A DNA stretch of 15,845 nt from a virus (Duplodnaviria; Heunggongvirae; Uroviricota; Caudoviricetes), in the IMG/VR virus record IMGVR_UViG_2609459791_000001, positions 1 through 15,845 of that record; one strand, written 5' to 3'. Position 1 is the stretch's first letter. Every line of letters starts with the position of its first letter. The translations under genes were made by a program, and so were the position numbers. Shown here piece after piece: positions 3,966 through 11,385 of the stretch. A model generated the notes under the pieces. The model worked only from the letters and a program-made list of their open reading frames with translations. It made no database searches and was not told the origin of the DNA.

Positions 3966-4172
<207 letters not shown>

Positions 4173-5499: not shown

Positions 5500-5601
5500 A
5501 TCCGTTGAAGCCTGCTTTTTTATACTAAGTTGGCATTATAAAAAAGCATTGCTTATCAATTTGTTGCAACGAACAGGTCACTATCAGTCAAAATAAAATC
5601 A
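5500..5601. other. attL: attL (B-O-P') of a lambda-type integrase; 15-bp core GCTTTTTTATACTAA at 5514-5528 followed by the P' arm
   Basis: Exact lambda att core sequence; sequence to the right (gttggcattataaaaaagcattgcttatcaatttgttgcaacgaacaggtcactatcagtcaaaataaaatcattatttgatttc) matches what I remember of the lambda P' arm with arm-type Int sites; int gene immediately adjacent. Confidence 0.9.
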
Positions 5602-6672
5602 TTATTTGATTTCAATTTTGTCCCACTCCCTGCCTCTGTCATCACGATACTGTGATGCCATGGTGTCCGACTTATGCCCGAGAAGATGTTGAGCAAACTT
5701 ATCGCTTATCTGCTTCTCATAGAGTCTTGCAGACAAACTGCGCAACTCGTGAAAGGTAGGCGGATCCCCTTCGAAGGAAAGACCTGATGCTTTTCGTGCG
5801 CGCATAAAATACCTTGATACTGTGCCGGATGAAAGCGGTTCGCGACGAGTAGATGCAATTATGGTTTCTCCGCCAAGAATCTCTTTGCATTTATCAAGTG
5901 TTTCCTTCATTGATATTCCGAGGGCATCAACATGCAATGCTGTTGGGATGGCAATTTTTACGCCTGTTTTGCTTTGCTCGACATAAAGATATCCATCTAC
6001 GATATCAGACCACTTCATTTCGCATAAATCACCAACTCGTTGCCCGGTAACAACAGCCAGTTCCATTGCAAGTCTGAGCCAATATGGTGATGATTCTGCT
6101 GCTTGATAAATTTTCAGGTATTCGTCAGCCGTAAGTCTTGATCTCCTTACCTCTGATTTTGCTGCGCGAGTGGCAGCGACAGGGTTTGTTGTTATATGGC
6201 CTTCAGCTATTGCCTCTCGGAATGCATCGCTCAGTGTTGATCTGATTAACTTGGCTGACGCCGCCTTGCCCTCGTCTATGTATCCATTGAGCATTGCCGC
6301 AATTTCTTTTGTGGTGATGTCTTCAAGTGGAGCATCAGGCAGACCCCTCCTTATTGCTTTAATTTTGCTCATGTAATTTATGAGTGTCTTCTGCTTGATT
6401 CCTCTGCTGGCCAGGATTTTTTCGTAGCGATCAAGCCATGAATGTAACGTAACGGAATTATCACTGTTGATTCTCGCTGTCAGAGGCTTGTGTTTGTGTC
6501 CTGAAAATAACTCAATGTTGGCCTGTATAGCTTCAGTGATTGCGATTCGCCTGTCTCGGCCTAATCCAAACTCTTTACCCGTCCTTGGGTCCCTGTAGCA
6601 GTAATATCCATTGTTTCTTATATAAAGGTTAGGGGGTAAATCCCGGCGCTCATGACTTCGCCTTCTTCCCAT
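5602..6672 (-). CDS. int: Tyrosine integrase, lambda Int type
   Basis: 356-aa ORF; translation (MGRRRSHERRDLPPNLYIRNNGYYCYRDPRTGKEFGLG..., C-terminal ...HELRSLSARLYEKQ...LLGHKSDTMASQYRDDRGREWDKIEIK) matches lambda Int as I remember it, including the catalytic-domain HxxR and Tyr region; adjacent to att. Confidence 0.95.
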   Translation of the reverse strand: MGRRRSHERRDLPPNLYIRNNGYYCYRDPRTGKEFGLGRDRRIAITEAIQANIELFSGHKHKPLTARINSDNSVTLHSWLDRYEKILASRGIKQKTLINYMSKIKAIRRGLPDAPLEDITTKEIAAMLNGYIDEGKAASAKLIRSTLSDAFREAIAEGHITTNPVAATRAAKSEVRRSRLTADEYLKIYQAAESSPYWLRLAMELAVVTGQRVGDLCEMKWSDIVDGYLYVEQSKTGVKIAIPTALHVDALGISMKETLDKCKEILGGETIIASTRREPLSSGTVSRYFMRARKASGLSFEGDPPTFHELRSLSARLYEKQISDKFAQHLLGHKSDTMASQYRDDRGREWDKIEIK

Positions 6673-6868
6673 TTCTGATCCTCTTCAAAAGGCTACCTGT
6701 TACTGGTCGATTTAAGTCAACCTTTACCGCTGATTCGTGGAACAGATATTCTCTTCCATCCTTAACCGGAGGAGGGAATATCCTGCATTCGCGCACCCAT
6801 CGACGAACTGTTTCAAGGCTTCTTGGGCGTCGCTGGCGAGCGTTCCACTCCTGAAGTGTCAAGTACAT
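6650..6868 (-). CDS. xis: Excisionase, lambda Xis type
   Basis: 72-aa ORF MYLTLQEWNARQRRPRSLETVRRWVRECRIFPPPVKDGREYLFHESAVKVDLNRPVTGSLLKRIRNGKKAKS, overlapping the int start by 23 nt as in lambda. Confidence 0.95.
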   Translation of the reverse strand: MYLTLQEWNARQRRPRSLETVRRWVRECRIFPPPVKDGREYLFHESAVKVDLNRPVTGSLLKRIRNGKKAKS

Positions 6869-7084
6869 CGCAAAGTCTCCGCAATTACACGCAAGAAAAA
6901 ACCGCCATCAGGCGGCTTGGTGTTCTTTCAGTTCTTCAATTCGAATATTGGTTACGTCTGCATGTGCTATCTGCGCCCACAGCATCCAGTGGTCATAGCA
7001 GTCGCTGATGTTCTCGGCTTCGATAACTCTGTTGAATGGTTCTCCATTCTATTCACCTGTAACTCGGAAGTGCATTTATCATCG

Positions 7085-7142
7085 CCATAAAACAAAACTC
7101 GCCGTAGCGAGTTCAGATAAAAGAAAACCCGCACTCGGCGGG
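7085..7142 (-). terminator. Tandem rho-independent terminator-like hairpins for leftward transcription, upstream of xis
   Basis: On the minus strand: hairpin cccgccgagtgcggg (7128-7142) followed by a U-rich run, and hairpin actcgctacggcgagt (7097-7112) followed by ttttgtttt. Confidence 0.5.
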
Positions 7143-7164
7143 TTCGCATTCGTTCAAATTGCGT

Positions 7165-7446
7165 TTACTTCTTGGCGTTCTGTTCATCCATATCGATATA
7201 CCATGGGTTGCTTCCCTTGGGCATGTTTAACGACTGCTCGCGATAGTATCTGATGCGCTCCATGAAATACTCGCGTGAGTGCTCAGGTTGCTCTCATGAT
7301 ACCTGCTCAGTGATAACAGGTATGTTAAGGCGCTCTCTGTACTCCATGCCTGATGCTGCAAGGTCAACGTTTACCTTGTTCTGTTTTTCTTTCGATTTCT
7401 CGGCGATGTTATGCCTGACATTGTCAACCCGCCTCCTTCTGAACAT
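7165..7446 (-). pseudogene. ea8.5: ea8.5-like reading frame (282 nt) interrupted by one in-frame TGA at codon 51
   Basis: ATG at 7446 (minus) to TAA at 7165-7167 is a single frame of 94 codons with one internal TGA (7294-7296): MFRRRRVDNVRHNIAEKSKEKQNKVNVDLAASGMEYRERLNIPVITEQVS*EQPEHSREYFMERIRYYREQSLNMPKGSNPWYIDMDEQNAKK. Length and distance from xis match where I remember lambda ea8.5 (93 aa). Identity to lambda Ea8.5 is not verified. Confidence 0.4.
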
Positions 7447-7666
7447 AACGGTTATAAATCAGTCCCTGAGGGCCATAAGGAAGCGGGATGTGCAACTCCT
7501 CTGGTTCAGAAACTATCCATTCCCCGGCCATCTCCGCTGGAGAGGTAATGATAAGTTGTTTGCTAATAAAAGGACCACTCCTCTCAACAACAAGCTTACC
7601 ATCTTCATTAATAAAAGCTTGGATGTCAGGTGTGCTTCCACACTTGGTGATGCAGCGTTTGAACAT
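7424..7666 (-). CDS. Hypothetical small phage protein (80 aa), accessory region beside xis
   Basis: ORF in track 7424-7708; internal ATG at 7666 is preceded by GGGGGA at appropriate spacing, giving MFKRCITKCGSTPDIQAFINEDGKLVVERSGPFISKQ...; overlaps the ea8.5-like start by 23 nt in another frame; co-directional with the 191-aa gene. Confidence 0.5.
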   Translation of the reverse strand: MFKRCITKCGSTPDIQAFINEDGKLVVERSGPFISKQLIITSPAEMAGEWIVSEPEELHIPLPYGPQGLIYNRYVQKEAG

Positions 7667-7792
7667 TTTGTGTCCCCCCATTTTATGGACGGGGTAATTA
7701 TAACACATTGAAATATAGTAATATTTGACGTAGATTTCTTTTGATCTATAAGCGATTTTTTAATGCTTTTAAGTTATAAATACTTGTTTTCA

Positions 7793-8368
7793 TCACCCAT
7801 CTTGCTGCGGTGCTACTATTGAAAAGTACTCACACCCTTTAGCCCAAATAGTTTTGATAGTTGTCCAACTGACTGGAACCTTGATTTCGATTCTTCCGCT
7901 GCCGTCACAAGTTTCGCAATCATCATCACCAAAGCATTCCGGGCAGCTTATAAACGTAGTTTCTGAAAATTCACCGGATAGCACACCCTTAGCGCCGTTC
8001 TCAGCGGTTAGTTTCTTCGGCACTATAACCCAACCATCCGGAGTTACCGGAGAGTTGCCATTTATATCGAAGTTTGGCTCTGCGTCCTGAACCAGGAGGA
8101 TGTAACCATTCTTGGCAGTATCAAGTTCTAACGCCTCGGTGACGGTACCGAAATAGCGATTACCTAAATCCGCATCACAAGTGCTTACATCAATGGAAAC
8201 CTCCATGCCTTCGATTAATTCTGGCAAGTTGTAAGTTTGGCTTACAGGTTCTGCTCCCAGTGATGCCAGTGCAATTCGTGCCAGTTCCATTTGTTCGCCA
8301 CGAGTAAGCCCGTTTTCAAGCGGATTTTTAATGAACAATTCAATACGTTCTTTGGTAATAGTGGTCAT
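7793..8368 (-). CDS. Hypothetical phage protein (191 aa) with C-terminal DnaJ-like CxxCxGxG zinc-finger motif
   Basis: ORF with good SD (AAGGA, 8 nt before ATG at 8368); C-terminal CPECFGDDDCETCDGSG gives two CxxC pairs in CxxCxGxG-type spacing; acidic N-terminal two-thirds. No family recognised from memory. Confidence 0.65.
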   Translation of the reverse strand: MTTITKERIELFIKNPLENGLTRGEQMELARIALASLGAEPVSQTYNLPELIEGMEVSIDVSTCDADLGNRYFGTVTEALELDTAKNGYILLVQDAEPNFDINGNSPVTPDGWVIVPKKLTAENGAKGVLSGEFSETTFISCPECFGDDDCETCDGSGRIEIKVPVSWTTIKTIWAKGCEYFSIVAPQQDG

Positions 8369-8597
8369 TTGTTAGTCCTTAAACTGCTAGTTGCAATTGC
8401 ATTTCAAAGCGGTCGCGTTGTTCACAATACGCAAGAGAACCAGGGCTATTGTGTGCCTCAAACTGCAAATACCTTCCAACGAAACGCTCCAGAAATAAAC
8501 GCAAGCCAATCCCAAAAGAATCTGACGTAAAAACCTTCAATTACACAGCTCACCTGTGGGATATCCGGTGGCTAAGATATCGTGCGAGGAAATGACA
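8369..8597. promoter_or_regulatory. Divergent intergenic region between leftward accessory genes and rightward nin-like genes; contains 10-bp perfect palindrome tgcaattgca (8392-8401)
   Basis: Only non-coding stretch separating the leftward and rightward gene blocks; occupies the place where a complete lambdoid phage has its whole early/immunity region. Promoter elements not confidently identified. Confidence 0.3.
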
Positions 8598-10302: not shown

Positions 10303-11385
10303 TTAGAACTGGTAAACCATACCTACAGCAACGATATCATCGGTAGCAACGCCAGATGCTTTCGTGAAATCGCTCTTATCAATCAGGTTGATTTTGTAGT
10401 CAACAAAAGTGGACATATTTTTGTTGAAGTAATAGGTTGCACCTACATCAACATATTCAACCAGGTCCTGATCACCCCAAACACCCAAGTCTTTTCCTTT
10501 AGAATGCAGGTAAGCAACGGATGGACGCAGGCCGAAGTCGAACTGATATTGTGCAACAGCTTCGAAGTTTTGTGCTTTGTTGGCAATATGGTTATTACCA
10601 AAAACAGTCATGTTCTGGGTTTCAGAATAGGTGGTGGCCAGATAGATGTTGTTCGCATCATATTTCAGACCAGCTGCCCATACTTCAGCATTTTGACCAG
10701 AAGCATTCAGACCGTTGTTACCGTAGATAACCTGATTATTAGTGCGATCAGATTTAGCATAGGTTGCACCCACGCCGAATCCTTCATACTCATAAGTAGT
10801 TGAGAAACCGAAACCATCGCCATTAGCTTCAGTTACTTCATTTCGGTCATTTTTGCCCTGATACTGAGCTGCAAAGTTCAGGCCATCAACCAGACCAAAG
10901 AAGTCGTTGTTACGATAAGTTGCAACACCTGTGGTGCGACCAGTCATGAATACATCTGTTTGGGTCCAGGTATCGCCACCGAATTCTGGCAGAACGTCAG
11001 TCCACGCACCGATGTCGTATGCTACACCGTAGTTACGGCCGTAATCGATTGAGCCGTAGTCACCGAATTTCAGGCCTGCAAATGCAAGACGGGTTTTGTC
11101 TTTGGAGGAACCTTGAGATTCAGCGCGGTTGCCTTTGAATTCATATTCCCACTGACCGAAACCAGTCAGTTGATCGTTGATTTGGGTTTCACCTTTGAAG
11201 CCAAGACGGGCATAAGTAGTATCACCATCATCTGCATCATTAGAGGAGAAGTAGTGCTTAGCATTAACTTTCCCGTACAGATCCAGCTTGTTACTGTCTT
11301 TATTATAAATTTCAGCTGCCTGAGCAGACATCGCCATCAGTACTGATGCAGCTACAGCAGAAATTGCCACTGTTAATTTTTTCAT
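10303..11385 (-). CDS. nmpC: Phage-encoded outer-membrane porin, OmpC/OmpF family (Lc / NmpC-like), apparently intact
   Basis: 360-aa ORF with signal peptide [23 protein letters not shown], porin-typical N-terminal AEIYNKD...KLDLYGK and C-terminal ...VAVGMVYQF ending in aromatic residue; located between Q and the lysis genes as in PA-2 and DLP12. Confidence 0.9.

Follow-up and report, generated by a model that had tools for sequence, protein, structure and literature searches.

Two neighbouring genes beside xis in a cryptic lambda-like prophage are probably separate accessory units rather than a cassette

The window considered here is the whole 15,845-nucleotide stretch of IMG/VR virus record IMGVR_UViG_2609459791_000001, which contains a heavily deleted, cryptic lambda-like prophage at attB-lambda, beside ybhC, and differs from E. 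coli 20AR0354 at 4 of its 15,845 positions (99.975% identity). Our subject is a pair of genes in its variable, xis-proximal accessory region: an open reading frame (ORF) for an 80-aa protein at 7424-7666 (-) and one for a 191-aa protein at 7793-8368 (-). Past xis, the order of features is the lambda orf55 homologue, a pseudogene resembling the theta subunit of DNA polymerase III, the 80-aa ORF and the 191-aa ORF. The original prediction, made from the sequence alone, had placed both ORFs, their accessory location and a separate Shine-Dalgarno sequence for the longer one correctly; the latter is AAGGA, 7 nt ahead of the ATG. The 80-aa gene starts at ATG 7666, behind the Shine-Dalgarno sequence GGGGGGA, a start on which the Prokaryotic Genome Annotation Pipeline (PGAP) and divergent homologues agree. 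A 94-aa version beginning at ATG 7708 was rejected, having no Shine-Dalgarno sequence and no support from homologues. The ratio of non-synonymous to synonymous substitution rates (dN/dS) is 0.14 for the 80-aa gene against a 70%-identical homologue, a comparison in which synonymous sites are saturated, and 0.19-0.23 for the 191-aa protein's C-terminal domain against three phage homologues. Judged by these ratios, both ORFs are real, conserved coding genes under purifying selection. Both products are uncharacterised, as had been supposed: no family of Pfam, NCBIfam or PADLOC covers either of them, their PHROGs are without an assigned function, and a literature search by accession and PHROG identifier returned nothing relevant.

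The 191-aa protein is acidic (isoelectric point 4.2), belongs to the lambdoid early-left 'ea' gene pool and is built of three modules. Module A (residues 1-39; 8252-8368 (-)) is a helical N-terminus, MTTITKERIELF...ARIALASLGAEP, in which AlphaFold2 (AF2) places helices at residues 6-14 and 23-38. Module B (residues 40-104; 8057-8251 (-)) is very acidic, with a net charge of -11, and beta-rich in an AF2 model of low confidence. Module C (residues 105-191; 7796-8056 (-)) is the conserved C-terminal domain, with a single predicted C4 zinc knuckle. Relatives combine these parts in different ways. Three PHROGs (phrog_3323, phrog_660 and phrog_10451) match the N-terminus alone, and residues 40-191 are found in relatives under other N-termini, the Pfam Ead_Ea22 domain among them. 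Module B is common to HkaE of HK620, HK633 and P22-like phages, where DUF551 comes next; residues 1-114 of the 191-aa protein share 96.5% amino acid identity with HK620 HkaE, the C-terminus of which is DUF551. Nearly the whole protein (residues 1-190) is matched by phrog_60, which has no assigned function (E=1.4e-41), and more than 7,900 relatives, variously named 'molecular chaperone DnaJ', 'ead/Ea22-like', DUF550 or DUF551, came out of a word-indexed search. On these sequence comparisons, the 191-aa protein is a new module combination within a large, catalogued and unstudied mosaic family. It has no significant Pfam or NCBIfam match, and its sole PADLOC match, to PDC-M01B, covers 25 residues at E=0.015. 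A search with structural models of both proteins had been proposed: it was run for the 191-aa protein, for which the full-length AF2 model is poor (predicted local distance difference test score, pLDDT, 57.8), and the 80-aa model (pLDDT 39.7) was left out. Structure searches and PDB sequence searches with the 191-aa protein gave no significant match, and a PDB profile search gave only non-significant matches to the DnaJ cysteine-rich domain and LHK exonuclease.

The cysteine motif that had been noticed in the C-terminus is CPECFGDDDCETCDGSG, at residues 142-158, with the knuckle pattern CxxCxG-x3-CxxCxGxG and cysteines C142, C145, C151 and C154. AF2 models residues 130-185 with a pLDDT of 70-84, as a strand (134-141), the two knuckles, a second strand (159-166) and a helix (168-185); in this prediction a beta-hairpin bears a single zinc knuckle at its tip and a helix comes after it. 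In an exhaustive HMMER search with residues 100-191, a query comprising the C-terminal domain and five module B residues, the domain was found in 1,319 50%-identity clusters at E<=1e-3. The match is C-terminal in nearly all of the 150 matches listed, in proteins of 95-442 aa. Its fusion partners are PF04447, PF13935, PF04448, DUF3850/ASCH and Lar, among which are the MazG-like dATP/dGTP pyrophosphohydrolase domain (former DUF550), Ead_Ea22 and DUF551. The domain itself, acidic and about 85 aa long, has no Pfam or NCBIfam family. Across a 146-sequence alignment the invariant residues are the four cysteines, G158, W168 and the stretch LTAENGAKG..LSGEFSE, together with L120, N124 and K127. A PD-(D/E)xK nuclease resembling lambda exonuclease was also considered, on the likeness of GRIEIKVP to GLIEIKCP and a PDG...ExK arrangement. 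The match to 3syy reached only E=0.36, and E161-x-K163 becomes K-x-E in ST64B and sal3; because E and K swap in homologues, this reading was dropped.

The 80-aa protein (WP_000476264.1; phrog_9613) is, by comparison, a narrow-range orphan with a conserved core at residues 1-70. Only nine clusters match it among 5.8 billion proteins, and the gene is present in 88 of 5,426 complete E. coli genomes. A tblastn search of GenBank phages gave no match, nor did a PDB profile search, and a GTDB genome scan returned a spurious 10-residue match and nothing else. A divergent copy, 70% identical in amino acid sequence, occurs in IMG/VR contig L044 and Logan contig L010, where it lies in a nin-type region, past the replication genes. 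No zinc-finger gene is found near this copy in either contig; in L044 a theta-like gene comes next, whereas L010 stops 3 nt past the 80-aa gene. In the window, the 80-aa ORF owes its final 10 residues to read-through into the theta leader, and comparison with L044 suggests that a deletion of about 55 nt fused the 80-aa gene and theta.

This fusion brings us to the next frame downstream, which the 80-aa ORF overlaps at its annotated start by 23 nt. The overlap had been noted in the original prediction, where the frame was called ea8.5-like; the overlap stands, but the frame is a disabled theta homologue (7165-7446 (-); Pfam DNA_pol3_theta, PF06440, E=3e-15), which PGAP labels a theta subunit carrying an internal stop. 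When it is aligned to intact prophage thetas, copies of which exist in nin regions, codon 51 is seen to have gone from CGN to TGA, and 1 nt is deleted past the native ATG (7421). Prophages at other attachment sites are annotated with the same stop. Theta could be read in 29 of the close IMG/VR copies and is disrupted in 28 of them, by the TGA, another stop or various frameshifts (at least three kinds of lesion), while the 80-aa ORF is intact in 30 of 30. Selenocysteine incorporation or programmed read-through at the TGA was rejected, because the one intact copy (L039) has a CGN codon there and other copies are broken differently. The window's theta allele occurs in about 91 genomes (records at >=95% identity) and the 80-aa gene in 88, so the two are about equally frequent.

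The 80-aa and 191-aa genes are separated by an AT-rich spacer (7667-7792 (-); about 33% GC) that travels with the 80-aa gene. Within it, a block at 7701-7740 is identical to L010 and L044 at 35 of 40 positions despite the saturation of synonymous sites in the gene. Over a longer interval, 7701-7775 (-), this non-coding sequence ahead of the 80-aa gene has also changed less, relative to the divergent lineage (L010/L044), than the synonymous sites of the gene itself. The sequence TGtTATAAT lies on the minus strand at 7705-7697 and, in our reading of the sequence, may be an extended -10 element. Rfam finds nothing within the interval of the two genes, and the predicted RNA fold of the spacer is not unusual (z=-1.5). 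On the other side of the pair, directly past theta, two tandem hairpins resembling intrinsic terminators (7095-7145 (-)) close the 80-aa/theta unit, and the joint of lambda homology, at 7130, falls within them.

Do the two genes belong together? In 87 of 88 E. coli genomes, and likewise in 30 of 31 IMG/VR contigs, the next gene downstream of the zinc-finger domain is the 80-aa gene. The linked copies form one block, however, with at least 97.5% nucleotide identity among the listed full-length matches, and within this block the upstream gene is free to vary in modules A and B, so that the C-terminal domain alone is constant. Co-occurrence is not conserved across divergent homologues, since the copy in L044 and L010 has no such partner, and more than 1,300 clusters have the zinc-finger domain without the 80-aa gene. 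From these comparisons, the linkage of the 80-aa and 191-aa genes is an artefact produced by a single young block of recombination. As read from gene neighbourhoods, the 80-aa gene has theta as its conserved partner instead, because the divergent copy again has a theta-like gene next to it and no zinc-finger gene. The 80-aa/theta pair is found in two contexts, representing two lineages; a conserved upstream block, a sequence resembling an extended -10 and terminator-like hairpins are also present.

We therefore favour, with a probability of roughly 60% for the whole including the mechanisms proposed below, the view that the interval consists of two independent accessory units that abut where the leftward early operon ends near xis. 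The first unit, the 191-aa gene, would have arisen by module shuffling within the lambdoid 'ea'/exo-xis pool and, in intact phages, would be transcribed early from pL. Because the zinc-knuckle domain is C-terminal, strongly conserved and promiscuously fused, it could serve as a constant docking or protein-binding module that brings variable N-termini, enzymatic or other, to one conserved host or phage partner. The 191-aa protein would then be a non-essential host-modulating factor and not a chaperone. The second unit would be moron-like, made up of the 80-aa gene, its own upstream regulatory block, theta and the twin terminators, and would be expressed without dependence on pL. The 80-aa protein may once have acted alongside the phage theta, and the gene would now persist alone, theta being broken in nearly all copies.

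Several observations weigh against parts of this proposal. The first cysteine of the knuckle, C142, is Phe in Sb31 of ST64B and in phage 118970_sal3; the evidence for zinc binding is the motif and its conservation, and that for a docking module is the domain architecture. The pairing of the 80-aa gene with theta is seen in two lineages only. As to expression of the second unit, a consensus promoter scan gave no promoter on the minus strand of the spacer, and the plus strand also has promoter-like hexamers (TTGACG-N16-TATAAG). A bolder form of the proposal would make the C-terminal domain a common docking module by which lambdoid and P22-like phages deliver swappable effectors to one host target, and would make the 80-aa protein a partner of theta on the epsilon subunit of Pol III. 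Theta binds the epsilon proofreading subunit of that polymerase. We regard this extended version as a long shot.

The strongest competing explanation is that the prophage of this strain is decaying and that the two ORFs are inert remains of it, kept intact only by the short time elapsed and their small target size. Comparison with E. coli IAI1 bears on this point. Nucleotide colinearity with lambda (98.5%) is restricted to 5514-7130, and so ends on the xis side of the theta frame and not upstream of that frame, as had been proposed; from 7130 to 8461 the window is 100% identical to IAI1. In IAI1, the 191-aa gene sits on the leftward strand within the exo-xis region, in the pL operon, with xis on one side and ea22 and a 251-aa gene on the other. 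The leftward operon upstream of it there comprises the 251-aa gene, ea22, TraR/orf73, orf63, orf60a, exo, bet, gam and kil. The ea22 of IAI1 is a genuine orthologue, VSEINSQALREAAE...IRIKGE, and lies upstream of the 251-aa gene. The 251-aa gene encodes a hypothetical protein (WP_000582228.1; MIHYHGGPITPD...; L002 10000-10755 (-)) and occupies the place between the ea22 orthologue and the 191-aa gene. In the window, all that is left of an IAI1-type 251-aa gene is its last 27 codons (remnant interval 8369-8461 (-), with the surviving 3' end at 8380-8461), running to a deletion joint at ~8461 where they abut a 5'-truncated ninE (~8449-8595 (+)). By this comparison, a deletion removed ea22 and most of the 251-aa gene from the window, and the pair cannot be said to occupy the ea22 position of lambda, as had been thought. 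Given a joint at this point, the prophage has lost pL, its entire immunity and replication region and most of the exo-xis region. Since the deletion removed pL, the 191-aa gene of the window is cut off from its promoter and probably silent.

The absence of pL, immunity and replication genes thus speaks for inert leftovers, as do the two flanking pseudogenes, orf55 and theta, and the failure of PGAP to call the 191-aa ORF intact. In IAI1, PGAP splits this ORF into a 137-aa 'DnaJ' with an internal start and a 46-aa 'partial' pseudogene, and in 20AR0354 it gives a pseudogene fragment only. On the other hand, purifying selection acts on both genes across their families, the 80-aa ORF has stayed intact in all copies while theta broke repeatedly, and the conserved block upstream of the 80-aa gene may drive its expression. 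We consider inertness quite possible, if somewhat short of even odds. It concerns present activity in this strain and not the identity of the genes, and is compatible with the reading of the interval as two abutted units.

It is unlikely, in our view, that the 191-aa protein does the work of Ea22 under a swapped C-terminal domain, modulating the lysis-lysogeny decision in favour of lysogeny. The two share an operon region; close relatives of the 191-aa protein (P0079 and P0108) fuse the Pfam Ead_Ea22 N-terminal domain to the same residues 40-191, and Ea22 proteins are known to vary in their C-terminal domains while the pro-lysogenic effect is kept (PMC7093339; PMC10834534), which counts in favour of such an equivalence. 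However, the 191-aa protein shows no similarity to lambda Ea22 (BLASTP E=1.4) and does not match PF13935, and so by sequence is not its orthologue, in line with the original prediction. Furthermore, the predicted coiled coil and terminal K/RGE motif of Ea22 (PMC7093339) are absent from it, and in IAI1 it coexists with the separate, genuine ea22 orthologue.

The original prediction had joined the two genes in one accessory cassette beside xis; taken as a co-functional unit inserted there, it could have a role in exclusion or anti-defence or resemble a toxin-antitoxin system. The genes do lie on the same strand, 126 nt apart, in a known variable cargo site, and the near-constant adjacency described above also speaks for a cassette. 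We nevertheless judge it very improbable, given that the linked copies form a single young block in which the N-terminal two thirds of the upstream gene is free to vary, that the divergent 80-aa homologue has no zinc-finger gene nearby, that cluster numbers are so unequal (over 1,300 against 9), that neither product has a meaningful PADLOC match, and that the conserved regulatory block stands between the two genes. Finally, a DnaJ-type role for the 191-aa protein, as chaperone or co-chaperone working through a DnaJ cysteine-rich zinc finger, can scarcely be credited: many NCBI records say 'molecular chaperone DnaJ', the two adjacent motifs are CxxCxGxG-like and there is a weak profile match to the cysteine-rich domain of E. 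coli DnaJ (1exk, E=0.86), but the resemblance stays at the level of the motif, as that match is non-significant and spans the motif only, Pfam DnaJ (PF00226), DnaJ_CXXCXGXG (PF00684) and DnaJ_C are not matched even at E<=1, neither an HPD tripeptide nor a G/F region is present in the sequence, and there are two motifs (CPECFGDD and CETCDGSG), not four, with a gap of only 3 residues.

The window has further features besides these. The gene order starts with int (5602-6672 (-)), xis (6650-6868 (-)) and the lambda orf55 homologue (lambdap35; 6908-7075 (-)), in which a TGG to TAG change at codon 9 leads PGAP to call a pseudogene with an internal stop. Beyond the 191-aa ORF, on the opposite strand, are the truncated ninE, ninX, rusA, ylcG and quuD, and then a porin gene. 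This last gene, annotated ompC and nmpC-like (10303-11385 (-)), lies within the late region of the prophage, past quuD, and in the matching genome it is followed by DLP12-type lysis genes. Rfam naRNA4 (CssrE), derived from repetitive extragenic palindromes, has a match of 60.7 bits at 4045-4115 (+), in the chromosomal flank between ybhJ and ybhC.

How do these two units compare with known systems? The closest relatives of the first are HkaE of HK620, Sb31 of ST64B, the 'Ea22' of PhiR47_1 and gp108 of 118970_sal3, which occupy the same slot near the end of the early-left operon before xis and int; full-length phage homologues of the 191-aa protein are likewise found immediately before an exonuclease gene, xis and int. 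Such mosaic exo-xis or 'ea' proteins are annotated as Ead/Ea22-like, DUF550, DUF551 or 'EaA'. The identity of gp108 to the 191-aa protein is 62% over residues 1-182, and Sb31 and the PhiR47_1 protein have the zinc-knuckle C-terminal domain in common with it. The A+B+C combination of the 191-aa protein is one of many, and likeness to uncharacterised mosaic proteins gives no mechanism. Lambda Ea22 is pro-lysogenic and combines a tetrameric coiled coil with a dimeric C-terminal domain (PMC7093339; PMC10834534). The 191-aa gene has in common with it the operon region and the shuffling gene pool, but the 191-aa protein ends in ...APQQDG, without K/RGE, has a different C-terminal domain and, in a low-confidence AF2 model, has two short N-terminal helices in place of the long coiled coil. 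The DnaJ cysteine-rich domain and Anti-TRAP resemble the 191-aa protein in their CxxCxGxG-type knuckles and in the beta-hairpin, predicted in our case, with a metal site at its tip. However, the four motifs of DnaJ form two zinc sites, whereas the two motifs here would form one predicted site, with no J domain, and the Pfam Anti-TRAP match to the 191-aa protein is non-significant (E=0.68).

Among relatives on which there has been experimental work, the nearest, judged solely by position, is YfdT of the E. coli K-12 prophage CPS-53, which together with YfdQ, YfdR and YfdS inhibits initiation at oriC when present in multicopy (PMC4776307). YfdT is a positional counterpart, being the last gene before the excisionase and following yfdP-yfdQ-yfdR, as in PhiR47_1. 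Over its first 42 residues, YfdT (gene at L013 11874-12179 (+)) shares 81% identity with the PhiR47_1 'Ea22' N-terminus, and it ends in ...SQQEVK, as in the PhiR47_1-type family. From these sequence features, YfdT looks like a deletion derivative of a zinc-knuckle-bearing gene; YfdT itself has no zinc-knuckle domain, and its similarity to the 191-aa protein is non-significant (E=0.054). For the second unit, P1 Hot and E. coli HolE belong to the same DNA_pol3_theta family as the neighbour of the 80-aa gene, the window copy of which is disabled, and no counterpart of the 80-aa gene lies beside P1-type or other prophage thetas.

In summary, the arrangement is one of ordinary lambdoid mosaicism, in which the genes are real and uncharacterised. 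The pair had been put forward as the best candidate in the window for an undescribed function, and this was an overstatement, as the 191-aa protein belongs to a very large catalogued family and has lost its promoter here. The value of this work is mainly corrective. A very common prophage protein family has been widely mislabelled 'molecular chaperone DnaJ' or split by PGAP into a gene and a pseudogene, the supposed ea8.5-like neighbour is a decaying theta homologue, and the apparent gene pair is an artefact of linkage. The exo-xis region affects the lysis-lysogeny behaviour of Shiga toxin (Stx) phages. If the idea of a docking module were true, the C-terminal domain would provide a handle on the host target of many exo-xis accessory proteins.

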